Source: Elusimicrobiota bacterium
GTDB lineage: Bacteria > Elusimicrobiota > Elusimicrobia > UBA1565
Assembly: GCA_043827405.1 (NCBI GenBank)
Contig: JBDRPD010000087.1
Coordinates: forward strand, 1-64,000
Direction of reading: 5' to 3'
DNA length: 64,000 nt
In this document: positions 31,286 to 52,129 of the stretch, in pieces
How positions within the stretch are numbered: position 1 is the first letter of the stretch
Layout of the letters: each line of letters starts with the position of its first letter
Program-made: the position numbers and the translations under genes
The notes under the pieces: generated by a model
Told to the model about the DNA's origin: nothing
What the model saw: only the letters and a program-made list of their open reading frames with translations
Databases searched by the model: none

Positions 31286-31295
31286 GGACCGCATT

Positions 31296-32012: not shown

Positions 32013-32095
32013 TTAAAGACCCAACCCGATAGGCCGTACACCAGCACGCTGATCAAGGCGACGGCGGGCGAAGCGAAGAGGCCGAGACGCCGCAT
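32009..32095 (-). CDS. Putative 28-aa hydrophobic small protein downstream of tatC
   Basis: ATG directly follows tatC TAG; MRRLGLFASPAVALISVLVYGLSGWVFN; too short for the ORF track. Confidence 0.3.
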   Translation of the reverse strand: MRRLGLFASPAVALISVLVYGLSGWVFN

Positions 32096-35740: not shown

Positions 35741-35789
35741 TACCCTGCTGTTGTCAGAGCCCGGGATAGAATGATAAAATCACCGTATT

Positions 35790-35863
35790 GGTGCGATACC
35801 CAAGTGGTTTAAGGGGCGAGTCTGCAAAACTCGTATTCATGGGTTCGAATCCCATTCGCACCT
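35790..35863 (+). tRNA. tRNA-Cys (anticodon GCA)
   Basis: Acceptor GGTGCGA/TCGCACC, U discriminator, anticodon arm CGAGT-CTGCAAA-ACTCG, GTTCGAATC; CCA not encoded. Confidence 0.95.
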
Positions 35864-35899
35864 AAATTTTTTCTCAAAACCCGCGAAAAACCTGTTTTC

Positions 35900-35929
35900 T
35901 TGCTCTATTTCCGGCAAATTTGATACTAT
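35900..35929 (+). promoter_or_regulatory. Sigma70-type promoter of the guaB-pur-pyr operon
   Basis: TTGCTC-18 nt-TACTAT with TGn extension. Confidence 0.6.
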
Positions 35930-35935
35930 TTTCCT

Positions 35936-36060
35936 CGACGAGAACGCCGATATTCACGGCGTCCCGAGAGGGAGCAAGGGCCGTTACCTTTTAATGCCCC
36001 ATCCGATCCTCAAAACCGCCGGCAGCACCTGCGTCCCGTTGTTGCCGCGCGGTTTTTTTA
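35936..36060 (+). ncRNA. Candidate cis-regulatory leader RNA (attenuator/riboswitch-like)
   Basis: Three hairpins followed by an intrinsic terminator, between the promoter and the guaB SD. Confidence 0.6.
36012..36059 (+). terminator. Intrinsic terminator within the guaB leader
   Basis: AAAACCGC-CGGCAGCA / TGTTGCCG-c-GCGG followed by T7. Confidence 0.8.
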
Positions 36061-36082
36061 CATCTCCAGGAGGTTGCACAAT

Positions 36083-37246
36083 ATGCCCGTCTTTATAGGT
36101 CGCGATCGGGAAGCCCGGCGCTGCTACGGCTTTGATGAGATCGCCATTGTCCCCGGCAATGTCACCGTGGACCCGGAAGAGGTCGATACCACTCTGCGCT
36201 TCGGCGATGTTGAGCTAAAAATACCTTTTCTCGCCTCGGCGATGGACGGCGTTGTCGACGTCGACTTCGCGATCGCTTTCGGCAAATGCGGCGGACTCGG
36301 AGTGCTCAACCTCGACGGCATCAATACCCGCTACGAGAAGCCCAAAGAGGTGCTCGCCGCCATCGCTTCGGCCAAGCCGGATGAGGCGACCAAGCTGGTC
36401 CAGGAGCTCTACCAGGAACCGACCAAAGAGCATCTGATCGCCCAGCGCGTCGAGGAGATCTGCAAAGCCAAGGTTCACTGCGCGGTGAGCACGATCCCCC
36501 AGAACGCGGACAAGTACGGCCCGATCGCCGAGGAGGCCGGCTGCGATGTCTTCGTCGTGCAGTCCACGGTCACCACGGTCCGCCACAAGTCGACGCGCTA
36601 CACTCCGTTTGACATCACCCAATTCTGCAAAGCGCGCAGGATCCCCGTCATCGTCGGCAACTCCGTCGGCTACAACGTGGCCATCGAACTCATGGAAGCC
36701 GGCATCAGCGGCCTGCTCGTCGGCGTGGGGCCCGGCGCCGCCTGCACTACCCGCGGCGTTCTCGGCCTCGGAGTCCCGCAGGTGACCGCGACCGTCGACA
36801 GCGCGGCGGCGCGCGACTTCTACTTCAAGAAGACCGGCCGCTACGTGCCCATCATCACCGACGGCGGCATGTCGACCGGCGGCGATATCTGCAAGGCGAT
36901 CGCCTGCGGCTCCGACGGCGTCATGGTGGGCTCCGCCTTCGCCCGCACCAAGGAGGCGCCGGGCCGCGGCTTTCACTGGGGCATGGCGACGCCGCACCAG
37001 AACCTCCCGCGCGGCACCCGCATCCGCGTCGGAGTCACGGGAACGCTCGAGGAGATACTCTTCGGCCCCTCCCGCCTGGACGACGGCAGCCAGAACCTGG
37101 TCGGCGCGCTCAAAACCTGCATGGGCTCGATCGGCGCCTCCAGCATCAAGGAGATGCAGCTGACCGAGGTTATTATCGCCCCGTCGATCCGCACCGAGGG
37201 GAAGATATTCCAAAAGGCCCAGCAGATCGGCATGGGGAAGTTCTGA
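36083..37246 (+). CDS. guaB: GuaB3-family IMP dehydrogenase (no CBS domains)
   Basis: YGFDEIAIVPG, ASAMDGVVD, GVGPGAACTTR, ITDGG, WGMATP; ATG 36083 behind AGGAGG. Confidence 0.9.
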   Translation: MPVFIGRDREARRCYGFDEIAIVPGNVTVDPEEVDTTLRFGDVELKIPFLASAMDGVVDVDFAIAFGKCGGLGVLNLDGINTRYEKPKEVLAAIASAKPDEATKLVQELYQEPTKEHLIAQRVEEICKAKVHCAVSTIPQNADKYGPIAEEAGCDVFVVQSTVTTVRHKSTRYTPFDITQFCKARRIPVIVGNSVGYNVAIELMEAGISGLLVGVGPGAACTTRGVLGLGVPQVTATVDSAAARDFYFKKTGRYVPIITDGGMSTGGDICKAIACGSDGVMVGSAFARTKEAPGRGFHWGMATPHQNLPRGTRIRVGVTGTLEEILFGPSRLDDGSQNLVGALKTCMGSIGASSIKEMQLTEVIIAPSIRTEGKIFQKAQQIGMGKF

Positions 37247-37250
37247 ACGC

Positions 37251-38777
37251 ATGATACTCATCCTGGATTTCGGCTCGCAGTACACCCAGCTCATCGCGCG
37301 CCGGCTGCGCGAGCTGGAAATCTACGCCGAAATCCTGCCCTACAACGCCGACCCCGCGCGCATCCGCGCGCTCAAGCCCAGCGGCTTGATCCTGTCGGGA
37401 GGACCGTCGAGCGTACACGCCGCGAAAGCCCCGCGTATTAGTAAAGAGCTGCTCGACGGCGGTATCCCGGTCCTGGGCATCTGCTACGGCATGCAGCTCA
37501 TGATCCAGATGCACGGCGGGCGCGTGCGCGCCGCCAAGGAGCGCGAATACGGCCACTCCCGAATCCGCGTATGCGGCGACGATCCGCTGTTTAAGGGCCT
37601 GCCGCGCGACATGGACGTATGGATGAGCCACGGCGACGGCGCGCAAGCGCTGGGCAACGGCTTCCGCGTTCTCGCCCGCACCCCCGCCGCCCCTTACGCC
37701 GCCATCGGCGATCCGGCACGGCGCTTCTACGGCGTGCAGTTTCACCCGGAAGTCGCGCATACGCCGCAGGGGGCGCGCCTGCTGCGCAACTTCGCGCGCG
37801 GCATCTGCGGACATAAGCCGCGCTGGACGCTGTCCAGCTTCCTGCACGACGCCGTCTCCGACATCCGCCGCACCGTCAGCCAAAAGAAGGTTGTGCTCGG
37901 GCTCTCGGGCGGCGTCGACTCTTCGGTCGCGGCGGCGCTCCTGCATCGGGCGATCGGCCGCCGCCTGCACTGCATCTTCGTCGACACCGGCCTGCTGCGC
38001 AAAAACGACCGCGAGCGGATGCGCGGCGTCTTCGCCAAAAACCTGGGCCTGAACCTGCGCATCGCCGACGCATCATCGCTGTTTTTACGGCGCCTGCGGG
38101 GCGTCGCCGATCCCGAACGCAAGCGCAAAATTATCGGCCGCGCCTTCATCGAGGTATTTCAGCAAGAGGCGAAAAAGCTGGGCGGCGTCGAATTCCTTGC
38201 GCAAGGGACGCTCTACCCCGACGTTATCGAATCGGTCTCGGTCCACGGACCCTCAGCGGTCATCAAGAGCCACCATAACGTCGGCGGCCTGCCCAAGCGC
38301 ATGAAGCTCAAACTCGTTGAGCCGCTGCGCATGCTGTTCAAAGACGAAGTGCGCAGCCTGGGCCGGGAACTGCGGCTGCCGGAAGAAGTCCTCGGCATGC
38401 ATCCTTTTCCCGGGCCGGGACTTGCGATCCGCGTACTGGGCTCCGTCACGCCGGCCGCGGTCAAGACCCTGCGCCAGGCCGACTGGATCATGCAGGAAGA
38501 GCTGCGCGCCGCCGGCTGGTACAACAAGATTTGGCAGGCCTTCGTCGTCCTGCTGCCGGTACGCAGCGTCGGGGTAATGGGCGACGCCCGCACCTACGAG
38601 AACGCGGCGGCGCTGCGCATGGTGGGCTCCAACGACGGCATGACCGCCCACTGGACGCGCCTGCCTTATGACCTGCTGGCCAAGATCTCGAGCCGTATCG
38701 TCGGCGAAGTTCGCGGCATCAACCGCGTAGTCTACGACATCAATTCCAAGCCGCCGTCCACGATTGAATGGGAGTGA
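37251..38777 (+). CDS. guaA: GMP synthase (glutamine-hydrolysing)
   Basis: LDFGSQY, GICYGMQ, QFHPE, SGGVDS, KSHHNVGGLP, KPPSTIEWE. Confidence 0.97.
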   Translation: MILILDFGSQYTQLIARRLRELEIYAEILPYNADPARIRALKPSGLILSGGPSSVHAAKAPRISKELLDGGIPVLGICYGMQLMIQMHGGRVRAAKEREYGHSRIRVCGDDPLFKGLPRDMDVWMSHGDGAQALGNGFRVLARTPAAPYAAIGDPARRFYGVQFHPEVAHTPQGARLLRNFARGICGHKPRWTLSSFLHDAVSDIRRTVSQKKVVLGLSGGVDSSVAAALLHRAIGRRLHCIFVDTGLLRKNDRERMRGVFAKNLGLNLRIADASSLFLRRLRGVADPERKRKIIGRAFIEVFQQEAKKLGGVEFLAQGTLYPDVIESVSVHGPSAVIKSHHNVGGLPKRMKLKLVEPLRMLFKDEVRSLGRELRLPEEVLGMHPFPGPGLAIRVLGSVTPAAVKTLRQADWIMQEELRAAGWYNKIWQAFVVLLPVRSVGVMGDARTYENAAALRMVGSNDGMTAHWTRLPYDLLAKISSRIVGEVRGINRVVYDINSKPPSTIEWE

Positions 38778-38787
38778 ACCTGTGACC

Positions 38788-39675
38788 ATGACCCTAGAAC
38801 GCTCAGAAGAAATCGGACTCAAGCTGGTGGCGCGCGGCAAGGTCCGCGACATCTACGCCCTCGGCGGCGACCGGCTGCTCCTGATCGCAACCGACCGCAT
38901 CTCGGCTTTCGACCATGTGCTGTCCCCGGCCATCCCCGGCAAGGGACGCATCCTCACCCAAACCTCCGCTTTCTGGTTTAACAAGATGCGGAAGGTGGTC
39001 CCTAATCACTTCATCTCGGCGGACCTCGGCGATATTCGCCGCTCCCTGCCGAAGACCGCCCGCCTGGACTCCGCGGAGTACGCCGGGCGCGTCACCCTGG
39101 CGCACCGCGCCCGGCGCATCGACACGGAGTGCGTTGTCCGGGGATATCTCGCGGGCTCCGCCTGGAGCGAATACCGGAAAACCGGCGCGGTCTGCGGCCA
39201 CCGGCTGCCCAAGGGGCTGCGCATGGGCGAGCGCCTCAAGCTGCCGATCTTCACGCCTGCGACCAAGGCCGATACGGGCCACGATGAGAACATCAGCCGC
39301 GAGCGGCTTGCCGACCTGGTCGGCTCCGAGCTGGCGTACGAGCTGGAAGTATACAGCATCCGCCTCTATACCGAAGCCGCGCAGTATCTGGACGAGCGCG
39401 GCCTAATCCTCGCCGACACCAAATTTGAATTCGGCTTTATCGACAACCGGCTTTCGGTCATTGACGAGATGCTGACGCCGGACTCTTCGCGCCTATGGGA
39501 AAAAGCGAAGTATCGGATCGGCCGGTCGCCGGCCAGCTTCGACAAGCAGTTCGTGCGCGACTATCTCGAAAAACAGGCCTGGAACAAGCAGCCCCCGGCT
39601 CCGACGCTCCCGCCGTCGGTCGTCGCCGGCACCACCCAGCGCTACCAAGAGGCGTATGAGAGGCTGACCCAATGA
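38788..39675 (+). CDS. purC: SAICAR synthase
   Basis: GKVRDIY, DRISAFD, ECVVRGYLAGS, DTKFEFG, DEMLTPDSSR; start approximate (GTG 38782 possible). Confidence 0.95.
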   Translation: MTLERSEEIGLKLVARGKVRDIYALGGDRLLLIATDRISAFDHVLSPAIPGKGRILTQTSAFWFNKMRKVVPNHFISADLGDIRRSLPKTARLDSAEYAGRVTLAHRARRIDTECVVRGYLAGSAWSEYRKTGAVCGHRLPKGLRMGERLKLPIFTPATKADTGHDENISRERLADLVGSELAYELEVYSIRLYTEAAQYLDERGLILADTKFEFGFIDNRLSVIDEMLTPDSSRLWEKAKYRIGRSPASFDKQFVRDYLEKQAWNKQPPAPTLPPSVVAGTTQRYQEAYERLTQ

Positions 39676-40190
39676 GCATCCAGCATAAACACAACGGCAC
39701 GGCGGTCAAGGTCCCCCCCCGCTACCGCATCGAAGTGGCGGCGAAATACGGACAGGATGACCCGCACGGCGCCGCCCTGAGCTCGCAGCTCGCGTCCATC
39801 GGGCTGCCCGCCAGCCTCGACGTCCGCGTCTCCTCGCTCTACGAGCTGATCGGAACGATGACCAAGCATCACATTCAGACGCTGTCCCGGGACCTGCTGA
39901 CTGATCCCATAACCCAGGAATTTCGCCTGGACGATACCGCCTCATCACCGGCCTTCCTCATCGGGCCCCACTGGCGCGTGGAGGTGTGGCTTAAACCCAC
40001 GGTGACCGATCCGACCGGCGAGAGCGTGCGCGAGGCGGTCGGCGATCTCGGTCTGCCGCGGCCGGAACAGGTGCGTACAGGAACGGCCTACCGCATCCTC
40101 GGCAACGCCCGGCGCCCGCAGATCGACAGGCTCCTCAACAAGCTGCTGTCCAACCCGCTGATCCACGAGACGATCGTGCAGGAGCTATGA
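39672..40190 (+). CDS. purS: FGAM synthase PurS-like subunit with two tandem PurS-like repeats
   Basis: DP.G...L...G...LLTDPI and VEVWLKPTVTDPTG...LG...VRTG...LLSNPLI; lies between purC and purL. Confidence 0.75.
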   Translation: MSIQHKHNGTAVKVPPRYRIEVAAKYGQDDPHGAALSSQLASIGLPASLDVRVSSLYELIGTMTKHHIQTLSRDLLTDPITQEFRLDDTASSPAFLIGPHWRVEVWLKPTVTDPTGESVREAVGDLGLPRPEQVRTGTAYRILGNARRPQIDRLLNKLLSNPLIHETIVQEL

Positions 40191-42661
40191 AGACCGCTGC
40201 GCCGCCGCCGCCCGTCAAGACCGTCGCCGCCAGCCCTTGGGAGGAGCCTTGGCTCACCGCGCCCCTGGCGAAACTGACGGCGGCCGACGCCCGCTGCGGC
40301 TGGTCGCTCAACGCCGAAGAGCTCAAGACGATACAGGCGCACTTCCGCACCCTCGACCGCGAGCCGACGCACGCCGAGATAGAGACCATCGCCCAGACCT
40401 GGTCGGAGCACTGCAAGCACAAGACCTTCACCAGTCCCATTTGCTATCAGGAAGGCCGCAGCAAAAAGCGCTATAAAAGCCTGCTCGACGAAACGATCAA
40501 GGCCGCGACCAAGCGCCTCAATAGAAGTTGGTGCCTCTCCGTCTTTTCCGACAACGCGGGGGTCGTGCAATTCGACAAGAAATGGGCCCTCGCCTACAAA
40601 GTCGAGACGCACAACCATCCCTGCGCCATAGAACCGTACGGCGGCGCGGAAACGGGCGTGGGCGGCGTGATCCGCGACATTCTCGGCGTAGGTTTGGGCG
40701 CGAAACCCATACTCAATACCGATATCTTCTGCTTCGCCCCGCCCGACTATAAGGGCACGCTGCCCAACGGCACCCTGCACCCGCGCCGCACCATGAAGGG
40801 CGTGGTCTCAGGCGTCCGGGACTACGGCAACCGCATGGGCATCCCGACGGCCTCCGGAGCGATCTGGTTCGACGAAGCCTACCGGTTCAACCCCCTCATT
40901 TTTGTGGGCACGGTCGGTCTGATGCCGATCGGCGCCGTCAAGAAGCGCGTCGCCCCCGGCGACATCATCCTGGCGGTCGGCGGCCGCACCGGCCGCGACG
41001 GCATCCACGGCGCGACGTTCTCCTCCGCCGACCTCAACGGAAGCGAGGGAGCGTCCGTGGTTCAGATCGGACACGCGATCAATGAGAAGCGCATGCTCGA
41101 CGCCCTGCTGCGCGCGCGCGACCTAAAGCTCTACCGCGCGCTGACGGATTGCGGCGCCGGCGGCTTCTCTTCGGCGATCGGAGAACTGGCCGTTGACGCC
41201 GGCGCCCGCGGCGGCGCGAACGTTCAGCTCAAAGGCTCCCTACTGAAGGCGGCGGATCTCGATCCTTGGGAGATATGGATATCCGAATCGCAGGAGCGCA
41301 TGGTCCTGGCCGTCCCGCCCAAGAATCTTAAAGCGATCCAGGACCTGTTCGCGACGGAAGGCGTCGAAACCTGCGCCCTGGGCGCCTTCGCCAACACCGG
41401 ACGGCTTACCGTCCGCCACGATGGAGAAACCCTCGTGGATCTGGACCTGCGTTTCCTGCACAACGGCCTGCCGCGGCGCGAACGCAGCGCCGTATGGAAC
41501 CCGCCGGCGAAAAACGGCGCGGTCAAACGCGGCGGCCGGGAAGACGTACGCCGCCAAATACCCGATATTCTGCGGTGGATGCTCGCGCACCCCAACGTTT
41601 GCAGCCGCGAATGGGTCATCCGCCAGTATGATCACGAGGTTCTGGCCGGCACGGTAGTCAAACCGCTGCACGGCCTGCACCATGACGGCCCGGGCGACGC
41701 CAGCGTTTTCTGGCCGACCGCCGTCACCGGCGAAACGAAATCCTATAGGGGGCTGGCGGTCTCCCACGGCATCAACCCCAACTACGGCAAGATCGATCCG
41801 CACGCCATGGCGCTGCTCGCGGTTGACGAGGCCCTAGGCAACCTGGTCTGCGTGGGCGCGGATGTAAGCCGGGCGTCCATGCTTGATAACTTTTGCTGGG
41901 GCAACCCGGACGACCCGCAGACTTTGGGCGCGCTGGTGCGGGCCGCCCAAGGCTGCCACGATGCCTCGATCGGCTATGGCGTGCCGTTTATTTCCGGCAA
42001 GGACAGCCTCAATAATGAGTACACCGACCCCAAGGGCGTCCGGCACGCGATCCCGGGCACGCTGCTAATATCCGCGCTCGCCCCGGTACCCGATATCCGC
42101 AAAGCGGTCACCATGGATTTCAAGAATCCGGGCAACCCCATCTACCTGGTCGGCGCCACGCGCGACGAGCTCGGCGCGTCCCTATACGCCGAGTGGAGCG
42201 GGAAGCACGAAGGACGCCTGCCCGCGGTCGACTGCAAATGCGCCCGCGCGACGCTGGCGGCGGTACAGAACGCGAGCGCCAAAGGCGTTGTGCGCAGCGC
42301 CCACAACCTCTCCGAGGGCGGGCTGGCGGTCGCACTCTCCGAAATGGCGTTCTCGGGAGACATCGGCGCCCAGATCGACCTTGACCGCATGCTCCGCGCC
42401 AAGGAAATCTGCGACGAGGCGACGCTGCTGTTCTCGGAATCGCCGAGCCGGTTCCTGCTTGAAATAGACGCCGATAAGGAAAAGACCATCGCCAAGCTGT
42501 TCCGGGGAGTCCCGCTGGCGCGTATCGGCGCCACCATCGCCAACCCCGTCCTGCGCATCGTCAGCCTCGACGGACGGCTGTTGATGGAGGAAGGAGTACG
42601 CGAGCTCAAGGCCGCCTGGAAAGAGACGCTGCCGACCATGCTCGACGGGAGGAAACGATGA
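40187..42661 (+). CDS. purL: FGAM synthase subunit PurL
   Basis: WSEHCKHK, ETHNHP, TGRDGIHGA, DCGAGG, SESQERM, QYDHEV, SGKDSL. Confidence 0.96.
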   Translation: MKTAAPPPPVKTVAASPWEEPWLTAPLAKLTAADARCGWSLNAEELKTIQAHFRTLDREPTHAEIETIAQTWSEHCKHKTFTSPICYQEGRSKKRYKSLLDETIKAATKRLNRSWCLSVFSDNAGVVQFDKKWALAYKVETHNHPCAIEPYGGAETGVGGVIRDILGVGLGAKPILNTDIFCFAPPDYKGTLPNGTLHPRRTMKGVVSGVRDYGNRMGIPTASGAIWFDEAYRFNPLIFVGTVGLMPIGAVKKRVAPGDIILAVGGRTGRDGIHGATFSSADLNGSEGASVVQIGHAINEKRMLDALLRARDLKLYRALTDCGAGGFSSAIGELAVDAGARGGANVQLKGSLLKAADLDPWEIWISESQERMVLAVPPKNLKAIQDLFATEGVETCALGAFANTGRLTVRHDGETLVDLDLRFLHNGLPRRERSAVWNPPAKNGAVKRGGREDVRRQIPDILRWMLAHPNVCSREWVIRQYDHEVLAGTVVKPLHGLHHDGPGDASVFWPTAVTGETKSYRGLAVSHGINPNYGKIDPHAMALLAVDEALGNLVCVGADVSRASMLDNFCWGNPDDPQTLGALVRAAQGCHDASIGYGVPFISGKDSLNNEYTDPKGVRHAIPGTLLISALAPVPDIRKAVTMDFKNPGNPIYLVGATRDELGASLYAEWSGKHEGRLPAVDCKCARATLAAVQNASAKGVVRSAHNLSEGGLAVALSEMAFSGDIGAQIDLDRMLRAKEICDEATLLFSESPSRFLLEIDADKEKTIAKLFRGVPLARIGATIANPVLRIVSLDGRLLMEEGVRELKAAWKETLPTMLDGRKR

Positions 42662-43431
42662 AAGCTCCCAAGATAATGATCCTCCGCACCGCGGGCACGA
42701 ATTGCGACGTGGAGACCGCCGCCGCCTTCAAGCTGGCCGGCGGCGCCCCCGAGATGGTCCATATCCGCGAGCTGAAAACCGGGAAGAAAAAGGTCTTCGA
42801 CTACGCCATCCTGGCCATCCCCGGGGGCTTCTCCTACGGAGACGACGTCAGCGCCGGCAGAATCCTCGCCAACGAGATCCGCAACCGGGTAAAGGATATC
42901 CGCGCCTTTATCCGCAGCGGCCGCCCGGTACTGGGTATTTGCAACGGCTTCCAGGCGCTGGTCAAGGCGGGCATCCTGCCGTACTCTCCCTCCGGCGAGC
43001 AGGTAGCATCGCTCGCCCACAACGACACCAACCGTTTCGAAACGCGCTGGGTACGGCTGCGGCTCAATCTGCAGAGCCAGTCGCTGTTCACGCAGGGGCT
43101 GCCGGAAATCATCGAGCTGCCCGTCGCGCACGCGGAAGGCAGGTTCGTCGTGAAGTCGCCCAAGATTCTGGAGACGCTGAAGAAGAGCCGCGCGATCATC
43201 ATGCAGTACGTCAACGAAGAGGGCAAATTTTCCGGCTTCCCCTACAACCCCAACGGCTCGCTGTTTAATATCGCCGCCATCACGAACCCCGAAGGGAACT
43301 GTCTGGGGATGATGCCGCATCCCGAGCGCTACACCACGCGCTACCATCATCCGAGCTGGACCCGGCACACGTTCGTGAAGGACGGGGTCGGTCTGGAAAT
43401 TTTCCGCAACGCCGTAAAGTACGTAAATTAG
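42658..43431 (+). CDS. purQ: FGAM synthase glutaminase subunit PurQ
   Basis: GTNC, GGFSYGD, GICNGFQ, NPNGS, MMPHPER. Confidence 0.96.
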   Translation: MKAPKIMILRTAGTNCDVETAAAFKLAGGAPEMVHIRELKTGKKKVFDYAILAIPGGFSYGDDVSAGRILANEIRNRVKDIRAFIRSGRPVLGICNGFQALVKAGILPYSPSGEQVASLAHNDTNRFETRWVRLRLNLQSQSLFTQGLPEIIELPVAHAEGRFVVKSPKILETLKKSRAIIMQYVNEEGKFSGFPYNPNGSLFNIAAITNPEGNCLGMMPHPERYTTRYHHPSWTRHTFVKDGVGLEIFRNAVKYVN

Positions 43432-43454
43432 CCGGCCCAGGAGGTGGCGGATCG

Positions 43455-44891
43455 ATGTGCGGTATCGTCGGCATTGCCGATCACAAGGATGCGTCTCAAC
43501 TCGCCTATCTAGGCCTGTTCGCGCTGCAGCACCGCGGCCAGGAGGCCGCCGGCATCATCATGTCCCATCGCGGACGGCTCGCCGGCCGCATCGCGCTGGG
43601 GCTGGTCGCGGAAGCGTTTCCGGAAGCGGCGCTCAGGAGCCTTAAGGGACGCACGGCCGTCGGCCACGTGCGCTACGCGACGGCGGGCGGCGGGGGTTTG
43701 CGCAACGCCCAGCCGCTCGTTTTCGCCACCCGCCACGGCCAAATCTCCGTATCGCACAACGGCACGCTGACCAATGCGCTGTCGCTGCGCCGCCGCCTGG
43801 AGCGCGACGGCGCGATCTTTCGCAGCACGACCGACAGCGAGGTCGTGGTGCACTTGATCGCCCGCCGCCAGGGAACGGTGGAGCAGGCGATCGCGGAATC
43901 CCTGCGCCTCCTGGAAGGCGCCTACTCCTTCATCTTCCAAACTCCCGACAAGCTCATCGCCGCGCGCGACCCCCTGGGCTTCCGTCCGCTGTGTCTCGGC
44001 CGGATCGGGCGCGCCTACGTCTTCGCCTCCGAGACCACGGCGCTTAATCACATGGGCGCGCGGCTGGTGCGCGAGATCGAGCCCGGCGAGATCGTGATTG
44101 TCGAAGGGCGCAAGCTGCGCAGCCTGCGCATTCTCGCTCCCCGCCGTGCTTCCGCCTTTTGCGTGTTCGAGCAGATTTACTTCGCGCGGCCCGACTCCAC
44201 CGTCTTCGGCCGCAGCGTACACGCCACGCGCCGCGCCCTCGGCCGGGAGCTGGCCCGCGAGATGTGGGGGCTGGAAGCGGACATCGTTGTTCCCGTCCCC
44301 GACTCCGGAGTCACCGCGGCTCTGGGATTCGCCGGCGAGTCCGGCGTACCGCTTGAGCTGGGCTTCGTACGCAGCCACTACGTTGGACGCTCCTTCATTC
44401 AGCCGGCGCAGATCCTGCGCGACAGCGCGGTATCTCTCAAGCTGGCGCCGGTGCGGGAGATTCTTAAGGGCAAGCGCATCGTGCTGGTGGACGACTCACT
44501 GGTGCGCGGAACAACATCGCAGCGCATCTGCCGCACCCTGCGCGAAGTCGGCGCCAAGAGCATCCACGTGGCGGTCTCCTCGCCGCCGATCATCTCTCCC
44601 TGCTACTACGGGATAGATACCCCGAGCGAGAACGAGCTGCTGTCGGCCAACAATACGCTGGAGCAGACCCGCCGCTTCCTGCATGCGGACTCCATCCACT
44701 TCCTGAGCATCGAGGGGATGCTGCGCGCCGCGAACGCGCCGTGCCGGCGGCGGATCTTCTGCACCGCCTGCTTCACCGGCCGCTATCCGACGCGCATCAC
44801 CGATTTCAGGATCGGGGAAAGCGCGCGCTGCATCGCGCTGCGCAACGGCCGAGCCGCCGCGCAGCCGCCGGACCCGGCGGTCAGGGCATGA
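43455..44891 (+). CDS. purF: Amidophosphoribosyltransferase
   Basis: MCGIVG, QHRGQE, GHVRY, VDDSLVRGTT, PCYYGID, CTACF. Confidence 0.96.
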   Translation: MCGIVGIADHKDASQLAYLGLFALQHRGQEAAGIIMSHRGRLAGRIALGLVAEAFPEAALRSLKGRTAVGHVRYATAGGGGLRNAQPLVFATRHGQISVSHNGTLTNALSLRRRLERDGAIFRSTTDSEVVVHLIARRQGTVEQAIAESLRLLEGAYSFIFQTPDKLIAARDPLGFRPLCLGRIGRAYVFASETTALNHMGARLVREIEPGEIVIVEGRKLRSLRILAPRRASAFCVFEQIYFARPDSTVFGRSVHATRRALGRELAREMWGLEADIVVPVPDSGVTAALGFAGESGVPLELGFVRSHYVGRSFIQPAQILRDSAVSLKLAPVREILKGKRIVLVDDSLVRGTTSQRICRTLREVGAKSIHVAVSSPPIISPCYYGIDTPSENELLSANNTLEQTRRFLHADSIHFLSIEGMLRAANAPCRRRIFCTACFTGRYPTRITDFRIGESARCIALRNGRAAAQPPDPAVRA

Positions 44892-46168
44892 ACGTCTTAC
44901 TCATCGGCTCGGGCGGCAGGGAGCATGCGCTGGCGTGGAAGATCGCACAGAGCCCGCGGCTGGACAAGCTCTACGCCGCCCCCGGATCGAGCGCCATCGG
45001 CGCGCTCGCCGAATGCGTCGAGCTCAGCGTTGCGGACCATGGCGCAACGACGGCCTTTTGCCGCGAGCACCGGATTCATCTCGTCGTCATCGGCCCGGAA
45101 GAGCCGCTGGCCGCCGGGCTGGCGGACGCTCTGCATGCGGCCGGCGTCCCGGTCTTCGGCCCCGCGCGCGCGACCGCGCGCCTGGAATCATCCAAGGCTT
45201 TCGCCAAGGATTTCATGCAGCGTCACGGCATACCGACCGCCGCCGGCGCCGACTTTTCCGATCCGGGCCTGGCGCGACGAGCTCTGGCCGCCTCCGATTT
45301 TCCGCTCGTTATCAAGGCGGACGGCCTGGCCGCCGGCAAGGGCGTAATTGTCTGCCGGGACATGGCGGAGGCCGAGGCGGCCGTCGAAGACCTCATGCTC
45401 AAGGGCGCCCACGGCGGCGCCGGCCGCCGTCTTATTATTGAGGAATGCCTTACCGGACCGGAAGTATCGATCATGGGCCTATGCGACGGCAAGAGGTTCC
45501 TCGCCCTGCCCCCGAGCTCGGATCACAAGCGCCTGCTCGAAGGCGACCGGGGGCCGAACACCGGCGGCATGGGCGTCATCGCGCCGACGCCGCACCTGAG
45601 CGGGGAGCTCGCCCGCCGCGTGCACCGCGAGATCATCGACCCCGTGCTCGCGGGGATGCGGGCCGACGGCCTGCGCTTCAACGGAGTACTTTACTGCGGG
45701 CTGATGCTGACGGCCGACGGGCCGAAAGTCCTCGAATTCAACGTCCGCTTCGGCGACCCCGAAACCCAGGCGGTTCTGCCGCTGCTGCGCTGCGACCTGC
45801 TGGAATGCCTCGACGCGGCCGCCTGCGGCGATTTAAACGAACGCATTCTGCCGTGGGACGGCGCCGCCTTTAATGTGGTGCTGGCCGCGGAAGGCTATCC
45901 GGAAGAACCCATCACCGGACGCATCATCGAGGGCCTCGACGCCGAGATGGACGACGAGGCGCTGGTCTTTCACGCCGGCACGGTGCGGGTGAACGGAGAG
46001 TGGAAAACGAAGGGCGGCCGGGTCCTGAGCGTTACCGGGCTGGGCCGCAACCTGGCGGACGCCCGTGAACGGGCCTACGCCGCGGCGGGCAGGATCCGTT
46101 TCGCCGGAGCGCAGTACCGCCGCGATATCGGGCATCAGGCCATCCGGCCTATGGAGAAAACGGCATGA
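44888..46168 (+). CDS. purD: Phosphoribosylamine-glycine ligase
   Basis: GSGGREHA, KADGLAAGKGV, GPNTGGMG, RFGDPETQ, GGRVL. Confidence 0.96.
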   Translation: MNVLLIGSGGREHALAWKIAQSPRLDKLYAAPGSSAIGALAECVELSVADHGATTAFCREHRIHLVVIGPEEPLAAGLADALHAAGVPVFGPARATARLESSKAFAKDFMQRHGIPTAAGADFSDPGLARRALAASDFPLVIKADGLAAGKGVIVCRDMAEAEAAVEDLMLKGAHGGAGRRLIIEECLTGPEVSIMGLCDGKRFLALPPSSDHKRLLEGDRGPNTGGMGVIAPTPHLSGELARRVHREIIDPVLAGMRADGLRFNGVLYCGLMLTADGPKVLEFNVRFGDPETQAVLPLLRCDLLECLDAAACGDLNERILPWDGAAFNVVLAAEGYPEEPITGRIIEGLDAEMDDEALVFHAGTVRVNGEWKTKGGRVLSVTGLGRNLADARERAYAAAGRIRFAGAQYRRDIGHQAIRPMEKTA

Positions 46169-46656
46169 GCGGAATCGGCGCAGCGATCATAATGGGAAGC
46201 GACTCGGACCTGCCGGTGATGAAGAAAGCCGCCGAACTGCTGGACGATTTCGCCGTCGGCTACCGGATGACGATCGGCTCGGCGCATCGCAGCCCGGAAT
46301 ACGTAGCGGAGTTTGTACGCGCCGCGGAACAGGACGGGGTCGGCGTTTTCATCGCCGCCGCCGGCATGGCCGCGCACCTGGCGGGCGCCGTGGCCGGCCT
46401 CACGACGCGCCCGGTCATCGGCGTGCCCATGGGCTCCAAGCTGGCGGGCTTCGACTCCCTGCTTTCCACGGTACAGATGCCCCGCGGGGTGCCGGTCGCC
46501 ACGGTGGCGATCGACGGCGGCGCCAACGCCGCCCTTCTTGCCGTGCAGATTCTGGCCCTGTCCGACAAGACGCTCGCCGAGCGGCTCACCGCGCACAAGA
46601 AGGAAATGGCGGCGGCGGTCCGCCGCCAAGCCGAAGCTTTGCATTCGCATGCCTGA
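46165..46656 (+). CDS. purE: N5-CAIR mutase
   Basis: [31 protein letters not shown]. Confidence 0.95.
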
Positions 46657-47941
46657 CCTGCGCATCGCCAACGGCCTCATCATCGACCCCGCATCGGGGC
46701 TGGAAGCCCGCCGCGACCTGCTGGTCCGCCGGGGCAAGGTCGCCGCCATCATCCCCCCGCGCAGCAAAACGCCGACGGCCAGGATCATTGATGCCGCGGG
46801 CTGCTGGGTCGTCCCCGGACTGATCGATATGCATGTGCACCTGCGCGATCCGGGTACGCCGGAAGACGAGACCCTGGAGACCGGCACGCGGGCGGCAGCC
46901 GCCGGCGGCGTGACCACGGTGCTGGCGATGGCCAATACCCGGCCCGTCATCGACACCCCCCAACGAGTCCGCCGCGTCCGCGCGCATGCCCGGCGCCGCG
47001 CCGTCGTCAATGTCCTGGTCGCCGGCGCGGTAACCCGCGGCCTGCGCGGCGAGCGCCTCACCGCCCTCGAGCAGCTCGCCGCCGCCGGCGTCGCCGCCTT
47101 CTCCGATGACGGCCGTCCGGTCATGAACGCGGAGCTCATGCGGCAAGCGCTCCTGCGTGCCCGGCGGCTCAACCTGCCGGTGCTCGACCATGCGGAAGAC
47201 GACCATCTAACCGGCGACGGCGTTATGCACGCGGGCCGCCGCGCGACCCGGCTGGGGCTGCCCGGAATCCCCGCCGCCGCGGAAACTTTGATGGCCATGC
47301 GGGATATCGCGCTCGCCGAGCTCACGGGCGGCCGCCTCCACATCTGCCATGTCAGCTGCGCCGGCACGGTCCAGCTCATCCGGAAAGCAAAGAAGCGCGG
47401 AGCGCCGGTGACCGGCGAGGCCGCGCCGCACCACTTCACTTTGACCGACGCCGATATCCCGCGCGCGGGCGCCGATTACAAGATGAAGCCTCCGCTGCGC
47501 GGGCGCGCCGACCGCAAGGCTATCATCGCCGGCCTGGCGGACGGGACCCTGGACGCCATCGCGACCGATCACGCGCCTCACGCGCCCGCGAAAAAGGCGC
47601 GCGGCCTGCGCACGGCGCCGTTCGGCATCATCGGCCTGGAAACTTTGCTCCCCCTGTCGCTGGCGCTCGTCAGGCGCGGACAGCTGACCCGCCGGCGTCT
47701 GATCGAATTGCTCTCCGCCGCTCCGGCCGCGATCCTCGGCCTAAAGACCAAGGGGCATCTCCGCCCGCACCGTGCCGACGCTGATATTACGATTATCGAC
47801 CCGCAAGCGTGCTGGCGAGCCCCGCGCCGCGGCGCCTCGCGCAGCCGCAATACGCCGTTTGCCGGACGCCGGCTGCGCGGACGGGCCCGCGCCACTATCG
47901 TCGGCGGCGAAGTCGTCCATCTGCAGGAGGCCGTGCGATGA
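46649..47941 (+). CDS. pyrC: Dihydroorotase (type I)
   Basis: [45 protein letters not shown]. Confidence 0.93.
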
Positions 47942-48633
47942 GAAAATGCGCCCTCGGGCTGCTGCTCCTCGGCGCCGCTTTGGCCGCCTGCGATGACGGA
48001 GCATCGCAGCAGGAACCCGCGGAGGAAGCCGCGCCGGCGGGAAATGTCTCCTCGTCCGGCGGCGGCGGCGGACAGGTCAGCGTGCAGCGCAACCCCCAGG
48101 CGCGCGGCGCGATCGAAGAGCGCTACGAAAAGGCCCTGCAGTCCATAAAGAAGCGCGAGTGGGACAATGCGCATGACGAGCTGACCGACGCCCTCAAGCG
48201 CGGACAAGGCCACGCGATGGAAAGCGATATTCGCCAGCAGATCAAGGTCGCCGAGCAGGGCCTCCTCGCTCAGCCGACCTACGAGGCGGCCGACCTGATG
48301 CAGAACTCCGCCAATTTCTTTGGCCGCCGGGTCTCGGTGCGAGGAACCCTTGTCCCCGGCGGTAAAGTCGGCCGGGCATCCCATTACTTTTGGATCCGTA
48401 CCGCCCGGCGCAAAATCCAGGCCCGCTACGGCAAGCTCTCCCTCGACGACAAGAAGACCATCCTCCTGCTGAAGGAAGGAGCGCTCGTGCTGGGACGCGG
48501 CTCCCTGAAGGAGCCCTGGGGCACCAACCCCAACCCCTACCTCGAACTCTCTTATTTCCGGCTGGAAAAGCTCTCGCCGGAGCGCGCGGCGGCGCAAAAG
48601 AAGCGCCGCGCCGGCGAGCAGGATGCGCCATGA
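47938..48633 (+). CDS. Hypothetical lipoprotein
   Basis: MRK-hydrophobic-LAAC lipobox; SD AGGAGG; ATGA overlaps with pyrC and pyrD. Confidence 0.75.
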   Translation: MRKCALGLLLLGAALAACDDGASQQEPAEEAAPAGNVSSSGGGGGQVSVQRNPQARGAIEERYEKALQSIKKREWDNAHDELTDALKRGQGHAMESDIRQQIKVAEQGLLAQPTYEAADLMQNSANFFGRRVSVRGTLVPGGKVGRASHYFWIRTARRKIQARYGKLSLDDKKTILLLKEGALVLGRGSLKEPWGTNPNPYLELSYFRLEKLSPERAAAQKKRRAGEQDAP

Positions 48634-49718
48634 GCCTCTACGAGCAGGTCCTGCGGCCGCTGCTCTTCCGCCTCGACCCGGAGACGGCGCACGACTGCGC
48701 GGCCCGCGTACTTGAGCTGGCCGGACGCACGCCCTTCGCATATGACCTGATCGCCGCCTCCCGCACCTTCAGCGACCCCGCGCTCAAGAGCGAAACGGCG
48801 GGGCTGCGCTTCCCCAACCCCGTGGGTCTGGCCGCCGGCTTCGACAAGGACTGCCGCCTCGCGGATATCCTGCCGGCTTTCGGTTTCGGCTTTCTGGAGC
48901 TGGGCACGGTCACCGCCCGCCCGCAGCCGGGCAATCCCAGGCCGCGCCTGTTCCGGTTCCCGAAATCCCGGGCGCTGATCAACCGCTTCGGCTTCAACGG
49001 CGCGGGCGCCGACGCGGCCCGCGAGCACCTGCGGCTCCGGCGACGGCGCCTGGTCCCGGTCGGGATCAATATCGGGCTCAACGCCGACGCGGCGCAGCAA
49101 GACGCTCCCGAGGAGTACGCGCGGACCTTCGCCAAGCTTTACCCGCACGGCGACTATTTCGCGGTCAACGTCAGCTCGCCCAACACCAGCGGCCTGCGCC
49201 GCCTGCAGGACAAGCTCGAGCTGGAACGTATCCTGCGCCGCCTGCAGGACCTCAACGGCGACCGCAAGCCGATCTTCGTCAAGCTCTCGCCCGATCTGGA
49301 CCTCGCGGCGCTCGACTCGCTGCTGCCCATGCTCGAAGCGCACGCCGCCGGCGTCATCTGCACCAATACCACGACCTCGCGGCCGGACGTTGACGACGAA
49401 GCCGCCGCCACCCGCGGCGGCCTGAGCGGCGCGCCGCTGCGCGACCTCTCCACCCTCATGATCCGTGAGATTTATCGCCGAACCGGCGGGCGGCTGCCCA
49501 TTATCGGCGTCGGCGGAATCTTCACCGCCGAAGACGCCTACCAAAAGATCTGCGCCGGCGCGAGCATTGTCCAGATTTACACTTCTTTCATCTACCGCGG
49601 CCCCGGGCTGCCGGCGGCCATCAACCGCGGCCTGGCGCGCATCCTGCGCGAGCAGGGGCTCAAGAATATCGGCGCGGCGGTCGGCCGCTCGCATACCGTG
49701 GGAACGGGGGCCGGATGA
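48630..49718 (+). CDS. pyrD: Quinone-dependent dihydroorotate dehydrogenase (class 2)
   Basis: LDPETAH, NPVGLAAGFDK, GNPRPRLFR, NVSSPNT, GGLSG, IIGVGGI. Confidence 0.95.
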   Translation: MSLYEQVLRPLLFRLDPETAHDCAARVLELAGRTPFAYDLIAASRTFSDPALKSETAGLRFPNPVGLAAGFDKDCRLADILPAFGFGFLELGTVTARPQPGNPRPRLFRFPKSRALINRFGFNGAGADAAREHLRLRRRRLVPVGINIGLNADAAQQDAPEEYARTFAKLYPHGDYFAVNVSSPNTSGLRRLQDKLELERILRRLQDLNGDRKPIFVKLSPDLDLAALDSLLPMLEAHAAGVICTNTTTSRPDVDDEAAATRGGLSGAPLRDLSTLMIREIYRRTGGRLPIIGVGGIFTAEDAYQKICAGASIVQIYTSFIYRGPGLPAAINRGLARILREQGLKNIGAAVGRSHTVGTGAG

Positions 49719-50479
49719 CCGACGTTATCGTCGCGCTCGATGTGGACACCATACAGGAAGAGGAGCGCCTCCTGGATCAGCTGAAGGGGACGATCCGCTA
49801 CTACAAGATCGGGCTGCGGCTGTTCACCGCGCACGGCAAGCGCGCGGTTGATCTTGTGCACCGGCAGGGCGGACGGGTTTTTCTCGATCTCAAGTTCCAC
49901 GATCTGCCGCAGACCGTATCCGACGCCGTGCACGAAGCGCAGAAAATGCACGTCTATTCCTTAAGCCTGCACCTATCGGGAGGAATCGACATGCTGCACG
50001 CCGCGGCCGCGGTCCATCCGCGGCCGAAGCTATGGGGCGTGACGGTGCTGACCAGCTTAACCACGACCGACCTCCGCATTCTGCATCCCAAAGCCGCGGT
50101 GCACCCGACGGTACAGCGTCTGGCCAAGACGGGCGTCGCGCATAAAATCGACGGGATCATCTGCTCGGGGCAGGAGGTCGACCTCCTGCGCAAAAAGCTC
50201 GGGCCCGACACCTGCTTTATCACGCCGGGCATACGCCCGAAAGGCTACCAGCGCCACGATCAGAAGCGCATCATTACGCCGGGCGAGGCGGCGCGCCTGG
50301 GCATCCGCTTTGTGGTGATCGGACGGCCGATCACCAAGGCGAACAGCCCGCTCGCCGAGGCGCAGAAAATCCTCACCGAGATGAAGAACGCCGCGCCCGC
50401 GAGCCTTCTGGAAGGACCCGCGCGCGAAAGCGCGCCGGAGCTCGGCCGCAACCGGGAATTCAAAACGGAGGACGCGTGA
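49715..50479 (+). CDS. pyrF: Orotidine-5'-phosphate decarboxylase
   Basis: IVALD, FLDLKFHDLPQTV, VTVLTS, TPGIRP, DQKR, GRPIT. Confidence 0.95.
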   Translation: MTDVIVALDVDTIQEEERLLDQLKGTIRYYKIGLRLFTAHGKRAVDLVHRQGGRVFLDLKFHDLPQTVSDAVHEAQKMHVYSLSLHLSGGIDMLHAAAAVHPRPKLWGVTVLTSLTTTDLRILHPKAAVHPTVQRLAKTGVAHKIDGIICSGQEVDLLRKKLGPDTCFITPGIRPKGYQRHDQKRIITPGEAARLGIRFVVIGRPITKANSPLAEAQKILTEMKNAAPASLLEGPARESAPELGRNREFKTEDA

Positions 50480-51066
50480 ACAGCGACGAGCTCAAGGGCA
50501 TATTCCGCGACGCGGGCGCGCTTCTCAGCGGACACTTCAAGCTGTCGTCGGGCCGGCACAGCGGCCAGTATTTCCAGTGCGCGCTCGTCCTGTCCGACAC
50601 CCGGACCGCGCGCCTCCTCGGCGAAGAGCTCGCCGCCCTGCTGCCCCGCGAATGGGGCCGGCCGGAAACGGTCGTCGGGCCGGCCCTGGGCGGGGTGATC
50701 ATCGGCCACGAGACGGCCCGCGCCCTGAACGCCCGCTCGATCTTCACTGAAAGAAAGGACGGAAAGATGTCTTTGCGGCGGGGCTTCGCGGTGCGCCCGG
50801 GAGAGAAAGTCCTCATCGTCGAGGATGTCGTCACCACCGGAAAATCCTCCGGCGAAACAGCCGCGCGGCTGCGCGAACACGGCGCCGTTGTTATCGGCAT
50901 CCTCGGCATCGTTCAGCGCGGAGCGGAAGACCCCGAGCTCGGCCTCCCCGTCCGCTGTCTGGCCCACCTGCCCGCGGTGAGCTATGAGGAAGCGGACTGC
51001 CCGCTGTGCGCCAAAGGCATTCCCGTTGTTAAGCCGGGCAGCCGCACAAAGGAGACCCCATGCTGA
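50476..51066 (+). CDS. pyrE: Orotate phosphoribosyltransferase
   Basis: GHFKLSSGRHS, VEDVVTTG, CPLC..G...KPGSR. Confidence 0.94.
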   Translation: MNSDELKGIFRDAGALLSGHFKLSSGRHSGQYFQCALVLSDTRTARLLGEELAALLPREWGRPETVVGPALGGVIIGHETARALNARSIFTERKDGKMSLRRGFAVRPGEKVLIVEDVVTTGKSSGETAARLREHGAVVIGILGIVQRGAEDPELGLPVRCLAHLPAVSYEEADCPLCAKGIPVVKPGSRTKETPC

Positions 51067-52028
51067 CCTACAAGAAGTCCGGAGTGGACATCGACAAGGC
51101 GGACTCGCTGGTAAGTTATCTAAAGAAGAAGGCGCCGTCGATCGGCGGCTTCGCCGGGCTTTACCCGCTGAAGCTCGACGGCAAGGGCCCGCACTGCCTT
51201 GTCGCCTCCACCGACGGAGTCGGCACCAAGCTGAAGGTCGCCCTGCTGATGCGGCGGCACCAGACCATCGGCATCGACCTTGTCGCCATGTGCGTCAACG
51301 ACCTGATCACCTGCGGCGCCAAGCCGCTGATTTTCCTCGACTACTACGCCACCGGCAAGCTCGACGTCAAGCGCTCGCAGGACATCTTCCAGGGCATCCT
51401 GAACGGCTGCCGGCAGTCGGGCGCCGCGCTTCTGGGCGGCGAAACCGCCGAGATGCCGGGCTGCTACCCCCGCGGCGAGTACGACCTCGCGGGCTTCGCC
51501 GTCGGCATCGTGAACAGCAAAGATGTTATCGACGGCAGCAAAATCTTTCCCGGCGACCTGCTCCTGGGCCTGCCGTCTAACGGCGTGCACTCCAACGGCT
51601 TTTCACTGGTGCGCCGGGTATTCAAGGGCCGGATGCTCAAAACGCTGGGGCGCAAGCTGCTGACGCCGACCAAGATCTACGTCGATGAAATCGCCTCTCT
51701 GCTGCAGGGCTTGCGCAAGGAGAAGCAGATCGTCCTCGGCATGGCGCATATCACCGGCGGCGGCCTGCCCGGCAACGTAGTGCGCATACTGCCCCGCCGG
51801 TGCCGCGCCGTGATCCGGACCGGCTCCTGGAAGACGCCCCGCATCTTCCAGGAAATCCAGCAGCGCGGACGCGTGCCGGATGCGGACATGTGGCGAACTT
51901 TTAATATGGGAATCGGCATGGTCATCGTGATCCGTCCCAACGCTTTGGAGCCGGCGCGCCGCATCCTGCCGCAGGCCAAACTGATCGGCGAGATCGTCGC
52001 AGGACGCCGGGAAGTCACCCTCAACTAA
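51060..52028 (+). CDS. purM: AIR synthase
   Basis: YKKSGVDI, TDGVGTK, DLVAMCVND, GGETAEMP, SNGVHSNGFS, HITGGG, TFNMGIG. Confidence 0.96.
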   Translation: MLTYKKSGVDIDKADSLVSYLKKKAPSIGGFAGLYPLKLDGKGPHCLVASTDGVGTKLKVALLMRRHQTIGIDLVAMCVNDLITCGAKPLIFLDYYATGKLDVKRSQDIFQGILNGCRQSGAALLGGETAEMPGCYPRGEYDLAGFAVGIVNSKDVIDGSKIFPGDLLLGLPSNGVHSNGFSLVRRVFKGRMLKTLGRKLLTPTKIYVDEIASLLQGLRKEKQIVLGMAHITGGGLPGNVVRILPRRCRAVIRTGSWKTPRIFQEIQQRGRVPDADMWRTFNMGIGMVIVIRPNALEPARRILPQAKLIGEIVAGRREVTLN

Positions 52029-52032
52029 TGCC

Positions 52033-52110
52033 GGTACCGGTTATTAACATTAACTTTTGGTTCGAATTATTTATGGATATGCTCAAAAGTTAATGTTAAT
52101 AACCGGTACC
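52033..52110. repeat. Perfect 27-bp AT-rich inverted repeat with 24-nt spacer
   Basis: GGTACCGGTTATTAACATTAACTTTTG (52033-52059) and its exact reverse complement (52084-52110). Confidence 0.95.
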
Positions 52111-52129
52111 AAAGGCTAGGAGTTTAATT

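Follow-up and report, generated by a model that had tools for sequence, protein, structure and literature searches.

We report a premature-termination leader at the head of a purine and pyrimidine operon in an Elusimicrobiota genome (assembly GCA_043827405.1), found within a stretch of 64,000 nucleotides (nt) of contig JBDRPD010000087.1, hereafter the window. This attenuator leader is real and conserved. Its relatives have kept an upstream start codon whose distance to the intrinsic terminator before guaB3 is fixed, a feature missed in an earlier note on this DNA, which had favoured a riboswitch or a PyrR-type site. The AUG opens a short upstream open reading frame (uORF) that runs through the terminator and overlaps the start of guaB3. 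Judging from the sequences compared here, we suggest that, as in pyrBI, a translating ribosome controls transcription attenuation in the leader, guanosine triphosphate (GTP) being the likeliest tuning signal. For this complete reading, the arguments on the two sides seem to us about evenly balanced; its first part, that a ribosome in the uORF is involved in the attenuation, is likely.

All the elements that the earlier note had recognised in the leader are present: the promoter, hairpins A (35944-62, -8.3 kcal/mol), B (35962-73, -5.2 kcal/mol) and C (35978-99, -5.7 kcal/mol), the terminator with seven T, the guaB Shine-Dalgarno (SD) sequence and a duplicated 8-mer. The 18-kb purine and pyrimidine operon behind them (36083-54316) is equally real. 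The terminator (36012-56) folds with -24.7 kcal/mol and its GC core (36016-52) with -20.3 kcal/mol; the fold of the whole leader has a z-score of -2.27, with 6 of 200 shuffled sequences folding equally well. Neither the leader promoter nor the leader terminator was included in the list of a simple scanner. None of three metatranscriptome contig sets extends over the leader. The promoter layout is conserved across the leaders of the order, and the start is of the CG(A/T)CG type in 17 of 19 homologous leaders. Upstream of the leader lies a tRNA-Cys gene with a promoter-like site of its own at 35751-35780. The earlier note had allowed that the terminator might serve only this tRNA gene, guaB being read from a separate downstream promoter. 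Such a promoter would have to fit into the 30 nt between the end of the stem and the guaB3 start codon; therefore, there is no room for it, and the terminator stands downstream of the operon promoter.

Table 1. Features of the guaB3 leader and its surroundings (positions in the window)
Feature	Position	Strand	Description
tRNA-Cys(GCA)	35790..35863	+	Upstream of the leader; the leader terminator may also serve its transcript
Promoter, sigma70 type	35900..35929	+	-35 TTGCTC at 35900-05; -10 TACTAT at 35924-29 with TG extension (extended -10 at 35921-29)
Putative transcription start	35937	+	First purine, G, 8 nt past the -10 box
5' segment	35937..35962	+	Conserved GCCGA and hairpin A
Weak hairpin	35968..36011	+	-11.7 kcal/mol; includes hairpin C; SD-like segment paired with the uORF start region, AUG predicted buried
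uORF	35994..36098	+	34 codons (MPHPILKTAGSTCVPLLPRGFFTSPGGCTICPSL); through the terminator, overlapping the guaB3 start out of frame
Intrinsic terminator (attenuator)	36016..36059	+	GC stem 36016-36052, U7 36053-36059; 22 nt from the A of the uORF AUG to the start of the stem
Consensus elemental pause	36041..36051	+	G-10 at 36041, C-1 at 36050, G+1 at 36051; incoming nucleotide GTP
SD sequence of guaB3	36068..36073	+
guaB3	36083..37246	+	GuaB3-family, inosine monophosphate (IMP) dehydrogenase-related; ATG at 36083; first regulated gene; TIGR01304, 439.6 bits, over the cut-off
Rest of the operon	37251..54316	+	guaA purC purS purL purQ purF purD purE pyrC hyp pyrD pyrF pyrE purM purNH

We found guaB3 in 88 of the 101 genomes of the order and read its leaders in the family of this genome (f1, 17/17), in f3 (3/6) and in the large sister family f2 (31/78). 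In all 13 f1 leaders with an intact hairpin, from nine genera, an AUG stands 21-23 nt before the stem, the AUG and stem anchors having been picked by hand; the 13 include one leader (genome G003) that was not used in model building. A leader with two tandem AUGs (L011) has them 22 and 19 nt before the stem. As a background, an ATG at 21-23 nt precedes only two of 139 strong intergenic terminators of the genome, and one of the two is the present locus. The same 13 leaders retain a hairpin of 34-41 nt, whose upper pairs vary with pairing preserved. In the covariation check that the earlier note had proposed, RNAalifold on a MAFFT alignment of the core gave no consensus pairs, the arms being misaligned; a comparison of pair types by stem level showed that pairing is kept. 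Elsewhere in f1, one leader lacks the 3' arm and keeps the AUG (L006), another lacks the hairpin and keeps an AUG (L026), and in a third locus (L032) the tRNA-Cys gene directly precedes guaB3. With the leaders aligned at the AUG and one leader taken per genus, its three bases alone are invariant in 11/11 genera. We consider the AUG to be under selection, because the linker behind it is only 34% identical between genera and guaB3 is nearly saturated at its four-fold degenerate sites (0.57 vs 0.51).

The frame opened by this AUG tends to stay open. A stop before the end of the stem occurs in only one of 11 genera, against six and two in the +1 and +2 frames, and none of the 11 has a stop before a point 12 nt past the 5' arm. 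In the five leaders in which the uORF is in frame with guaB3, it always terminates before guaB3, and several uORFs end 2-6 nt ahead of the guaB3 start. Early codons are rich in Pro (17/72 in frame, compared with 7 and 8 out of frame and with 5.5% in genome genes) and show synonymous variation; shared ancestry or RNA pairing could contribute to this excess.

It might be argued that nothing is regulated at the terminator, which would only end tRNA-Cys transcripts or pass a fixed leak, the uORF serving to melt structure and to deliver ribosomes to guaB3 by translational coupling. Good U-tracts are indeed commoner where tRNA-Cys lies upstream, half of the homologues have poor U-tracts, and many uORFs end a few nt from the guaB start or its SD sequence. 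However, the terminator follows the operon promoter, with no space for another promoter behind it, full U-tracts occur with no upstream tRNA in L011 and in G003, and the position of the AUG is fixed relative to the hairpin and not to the guaB start, from which it is 82-104 nt away (far more in G003). We regard this explanation as rather improbable.

A sequence-only model of the leader (R1) was run against 23 genomes. It found the leaders of guaB3/guaA but no other locus that was convincing; the two matches next in rank that were checked looked like coding sequence. It recovered two leaders outside its building set, in G003 (E 0.34) and in G013 (E 0.004). G003 has the element about 260 nt ahead of guaB3, with a spacing of 23 nt and a U8 tract. 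A long palindromic insertion stands there between the terminator and guaB3 (L034, C235:15830-16080), and palindromes of a similar kind are found before guaB3 at several more loci in Elusimicrobiota and Omnitrophota. The G013 locus has no guaB3; its leader AUG, in the usual position, begins a frame of 540 codons, which is the single guaA found. This AUG is closely preceded by a stop, and no other ATG, GTG or TTG precedes the GuaA core; the 5' arm and the U-tract have decayed. The product (L212; G013:C13, about 31070-32690, minus strand) is thus a GuaA of 540 amino acids (aa) with a leader-derived N-terminus, a natural translational fusion of uORF and guaA that arose because guaB3 was lost. N-terminal extensions of GuaA are tolerated in the genus of G013. 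Indirectly, the invariant AUG, the frame bias and the fusion speak for translation of the uORF, and its weak SD sequence and the predicted burial of its AUG speak against it; on balance, translation is probable. As a side observation, the GuaA of G007 (L214) is extended at its N-terminus, and about 19 residues are tandemly duplicated in the extension.

Such conservation has to be set against that of the signals proposed earlier. The terminator leader recurs in relatives, though the hairpins and PyrR-like motif that the earlier note had singled out mostly do not. Its view of an attenuator leader at the operon head thus stands, and a ligand aptamer built from hairpins A, B and C is not supported, only short motifs and no common fold having been found. 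The core of hairpin A (CCG..CGG) recurs in 5/19 leaders. An antiterminator layout, in which two alternative pairings would break hairpins A and B and invade the 5' arm of the terminator, was also not borne out: forcing both pairings gave -34.2 vs -49.3 kcal/mol, i.e., 15 kcal/mol worse. The GAGGG/TCCTC pairing (P about 0.8) belongs to the minimum free energy structure, side by side with the terminator; the CGGCG/CGCCG pairing has P = 0.02 in the nascent RNA. The duplicated 8-mer GCGTCCCG does occur at 35959 and 36031, but it has 615 copies in the genome and is present in 1/19 homologous leaders.

The earlier note had matched the leader to no known aptamer class, and Rfam agrees: no match at the gathering score was found in the window and none at E <= 10 for 35860-36120, and five homologous stretches (L002, L032, L033, L034 and L248) gave only sub-threshold chance matches and no riboswitch. 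A resemblance to the guanidine-III riboswitch was unsupported by these scans. Upstream of the terminator, a conserved aptamer sequence and structure was not found among the leaders, whose 5' untranslated regions (UTRs) of 7-103 nt give a gapped alignment with short motifs only. A ligand riboswitch or protein-bound RNA would be conceivable if GCCGA, often in the loop of a 5' hairpin, paired with CGGC in the 5' arm of the terminator; this short pseudoknot would be the antiterminator, and a nucleotide ligand would stabilise it, in a ZTP-like logic. GCCGA lies near the 5' end, no more than 25 nt from the -10 box, in 13/19 leaders; judged by eye, most leaders offer a complement of 4-6 bp to the 5' arm, and L007 and L033 may show compensatory forms; and neither PyrR nor a Bacillus-type PurR, the latter searched for in this genome, was over its cut-off (LacI-type PurR was not searched for). 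Against it stand the absence of an Rfam match, the very uneven 5' UTRs with no common fold, and the cost of about 6-18 kcal/mol for non-terminator folds where the stem is correctly blocked. It also leaves unexplained the invariant AUG with a variable next codon, the fusion in G013 and the second lineage described below. We find this explanation improbable, and the leader is probably not a riboswitch.

A divergent PyrR-type attenuator, the other suggestion of the earlier note, is largely refuted, and we give it hardly any weight. In its favour are the pyr genes of the operon and a single match to the core of the PyrR loop at 35961-71. The match itself is genuine; as a PyrR site it fails, the motif having 56 copies in the genome and occurring in 1/19 leaders, and the antiterminator not being viable. 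The proposed search for pyrR gave no PyrR over the cut-off in 23/23 genomes (best 28 bits vs 138), in a search whose controls were over the cut-off in 6/14 cases. The best match to the PyrR model looks, by its motifs, like a hypoxanthine phosphoribosyltransferase.

How a ribosome might act here can be sketched from studies in E. coli. Terminators of that species are repressed when a ribosome is within roughly 10-27 nt of them, and those early in an open reading frame (ORF) function unless pausing enforces coupling, by which pyrBI senses uridine triphosphate (UTP) (PMC4824070). With the AUG 22 nt before the stem, an initiating ribosome would be at the edge of the blocking range and an elongating one within it. 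RNA polymerase would start near G35937 and meet, 22 nt into the uORF, the intrinsic terminator through which this ORF runs. Following the footprint literature, a ribosome waiting at the AUG would leave the stem free, and one a few codons further on would cover the 5' arm. With ample GTP, the polymerase would cover the roughly 60 nt to the U-tract ahead of a weakly initiating ribosome, the hairpin would fold and transcription would terminate. With low GTP, the polymerase would clear the G-poor landing region and then dwell at pauses for G incorporation in the loop and 3' arm, so that a ribosome could catch up, block the hairpin and let guaB3-guaA-pur-pyr be transcribed. That ribosome would finish next to the guaB3 start or on top of it, and might couple guaB3 translation.

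Such a scenario presumes that the host couples transcription and translation. A short distance from stop codon to terminator has been used as a proxy for uncoupled transcription (PMC7858274). In this genome, 49/73 distances are 13-34 nt and 11/73 are at most 12 nt, with genes and terminators crudely called (89 found, of which 73 were in range). Terminators are thus kept away from stop codons, as expected if ribosomes block terminators (PMC7858274, PMC4824070), and by this proxy the host would appear to be a coupled one. The 5' UTR inferred here is 57 nt, so the AUG is not at the transcription start. Start-site switching onto the AUG was ruled out for f1, where the AUG lies 14-65 nt past the -10 box, and more in G003.

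If a ribosome is involved, we would moderately favour GTP-limited pausing as the signal. Elemental pauses follow the consensus G-10..Y-1/G+1, and lifetimes of such pauses have been measured against incoming GTP (PMC11260103). Apart from the site in Table 1, the leader has two further sites that fit the consensus, with G+1 at 36031 and 36041. A site of this kind falls within the last eight stem positions in 17/17 f1/f3 leaders and in 11/11 genera (joint P 0.01 by upper-stem shuffling); among the terminators of the genome, 47/139 have one. Just after the AUG, G makes up 16% vs 24% in genome genes, and A is not depleted; from AUG+28 to the end of the stem, G is 36% and U only 12%. UTP, as a signal acting via a U-rich pause region, was rejected on this last value. 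Moreover, guaB3/guaA are always first in the operon, which favours a guanine-related signal. Pauses and composition together make a suggestive case for GTP.

The same uORF and terminator could, of course, respond to a ribosome-side or general input (initiation rate, guanosine tetra- and pentaphosphate ((p)ppGpp), Pro-tRNA or elongation factor P (EF-P) at the early Pro codons, total nucleoside triphosphates (NTPs)), which would adjust nucleotide synthesis to growth rate and not to GTP. The stem starts just past the reach of an initiating ribosome (21-23 nt), and therefore the first elongation steps would decide. The early Pro codons, the existence of Pro-sensing leader ORFs such as mgtP (PMC3641672) and an operon spanning both pathways point the same way. 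However, codons 2-7 lack Pro in 3/12 genera, the Pro codons are not consecutive, and the second lineage has no such Pro pattern; both lineages are poor in G, and not in A, behind the AUG, and guaB3/guaA lead the operon throughout. We consider an input of this kind rather unlikely.

The second lineage emerged from a wider survey. Of the 143 distinct upstream regions of distant guaB3 genes, a promoter was scored in 61 and a clear terminator was present in four; each of these four had an ATG at +7/+8. We then took the best 30 of 64 matches among the relatives of one Omnitrophota-labelled genome (L273-L302). Their leader sequence is unrelated to that of f1, and an ATG lies at +6 to +8 from the -10 box in 29/30, at the presumed transcription start, so that the uORF would be leaderless. 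Base 4 of the uORF is G in 29/29 and base 6 is A in 28/29. The AUG frame is open over the first 25 codons in 27/29 (8.7 expected; 14 and 11 in the other frames) and extends to within 23 nt of guaB3 in 23/29 (5.9 expected), and 9/9 uORFs in frame with guaB3 stop before it. The first 30 nt contain 10-11% G vs 28-30% at other ORF starts in the same loci. Many of these leaders are merely U/C-rich, and Rho or translational coupling may act in them. Of 67 further guaB3 loci of other Elusimicrobiota orders and classes, 20 were inspected by eye, and no such leader was seen in these 20, or by eye in nine upstream regions of a distant paralogue of the IMP dehydrogenase (IMPDH)/GMPR family.

A number of observations weigh against a GTP-tuned, ribosome-coupled attenuator. 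The three f3 leaders have AUG-to-stem spacings of 11, 21 and 26 nt, and where it could be measured in the second lineage the spacing is 26-60 nt. The SD sequence of the uORF is weak or absent in most leaders, and in the window the AUG is predicted to be paired (probability unpaired 0.05; 0.37-0.93 in 11 others); in the genome at large, 167/393 unambiguous first-gene starts lack an SD sequence, 54 of them leaderless-like. At least six U in 8 nt follow only 8/16 homologous hairpins, and given such poor U-tracts the output may be partly translational in some genera; in the second lineage, a clear hairpin with a U-tract is present in only 11/27 leaders with a scored promoter. The chance of a pause consensus per leader is as high as 0.46-0.85, and its frequency in the second lineage (9/12 vs 5.3 expected) is a modest excess among kin that are not independent. 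G-poverty after the AUG could serve low structure or Rho loading instead, and a GTP-only signal would serve the pyr genes of the operon poorly. Finally, f2 runs the operon with leaders of 29-47 nt that lack this element: all 26 f2 leaders whose -10 box was located by a script fall in this range, too short for the element, and ATG occurs in four of them. In seven of the short f2 leaders (L014, L015, L019, L023, L027, L028 and L030), judged by eye, the 5' end can pair near the guaB3 SD sequence depending on the start base, an arrangement that resembles start-site control of the pyrC type.

As we read it, the leader would work like that of E. coli pyrBI, with a terminator within a leader ORF, termination by default, pauses enabling a ribosome to catch up, a nucleotide-biosynthesis operon and an unconserved peptide (PMC4824070). 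It is not a pyrBI homologue. It precedes guaB3-guaA and a purine and pyrimidine operon, its probable signal is GTP instead of UTP, and its AUG is 22 nt from the stem, whereas the pyrBI terminator lies deep in an ORF of 135 bp; moreover, its SD sequence is weak or absent and no U-rich pause tract precedes the stem. For Salmonella mgtM/mgtP, too, it has been proposed that NTP levels are read as polymerase pausing in a short ORF, with an unconserved peptide and Pro codons (PMC3641672). There, however, alternative stem-loops and not intrinsic terminators respond, before a virulence and Mg transport operon; here one intrinsic terminator would be overrun directly, in a feedback position before GTP synthesis. 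In yeast IMD2, likewise an IMP dehydrogenase gene with a leader terminator, the polymerase senses GTP (PMC3325174), but eukaryotic start-site scanning bypasses the terminator, whereas in the present leader the terminator follows both candidate starts and the ribosome would be the antiterminator. Start-site selection at pyrC (PMC6524683) is a further analogue. Guanine, ZTP and phosphoribosyl pyrophosphate (PRPP)/ppGpp (ykkC) riboswitches and PyrR attenuators also terminate prematurely before nucleotide genes (PMC10912719); unlike them, the present leader showed no Rfam match, conserved aptamer or PyrR gene.

Known gene-level feedback on bacterial purine synthesis consists of PurR repressors or riboswitches (PMC10912719). 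This 2024 review of purine control lists both, and the word attenuation is absent from its available text. No leader ORF before guaB or purine genes and no GTP attenuator were found in the literature searched, subscription journals and supplements of motif screens being mostly outside it, and the text available of PMC13323073 and PMC2965389 held nothing on guaB. We speculate that a GTP-sensing ribosome-coupled attenuator, equivalent for purines to pyrBI, controls guaB widely and has so far gone undescribed, in leaderless form in several uncultured phyla and in leadered form in this Elusimicrobiota family, with the terminator one ribosome-length (21-23 nt) from the start codon. Nearly all de novo purine and late pyrimidine synthesis would then be under it, with neither repressor nor aptamer. 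We offer this tentatively, the case for it falling slightly short of the case against. Polymerase-ribosome coupling as a nucleotide sensor is established for UTP (pyrBI) and proposed for adenosine triphosphate (mgtM); a GTP version before guaB, if true, would complete the set. It would also explain nucleotide control in lineages lacking PyrR, Bacillus-type PurR or an Rfam riboswitch at the operon, and why covariance-based RNA screens miss the leader, which has conserved a start codon, a spacing, an open frame and a base composition. The 60-nt core with its fixed geometry may be considered a natural ruler for the step from initiation to elongation in coupling.

The operon comprises guaB3 and fifteen further genes, in an order mostly retained in f1/f3 relatives as far as their contigs extend. 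The genome is 98% complete, has 63% GC and encodes Rho; the closest database GuaB3 records, some of them labelled Elusimicrobia, share 77-83% GuaB3 identity with it. No canonical guaB was over the cut-off in this genome. GuaB3 has the only IMPDH-like catalytic domain found there and heads a de novo purine operon, which argues that it is the working IMP dehydrogenase here. For M. tuberculosis, activity has been shown only for GuaB2 (PMC10912719).

Several minor observations may be added. Between pyrC and pyrD, an ORF of 231 aa (47938-48633) with no NCBIfam match occupies the same place in two relatives. In the 101-nt gap between purM and purNH, there is a perfect AT-rich inverted repeat of 27 bp (52033-52110), possibly a miniature mobile or repetitive extragenic palindromic (REP)-like insertion, or an internal control site. 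The genome has two Rho-like genes, one over the cut-off (C3) and one at 345 bits (C60). Elsewhere, on C32 and C50, two related leader terminators with a common upstream sequence precede secreted-looking proteins and represent a possible riboswitch or attenuator family.

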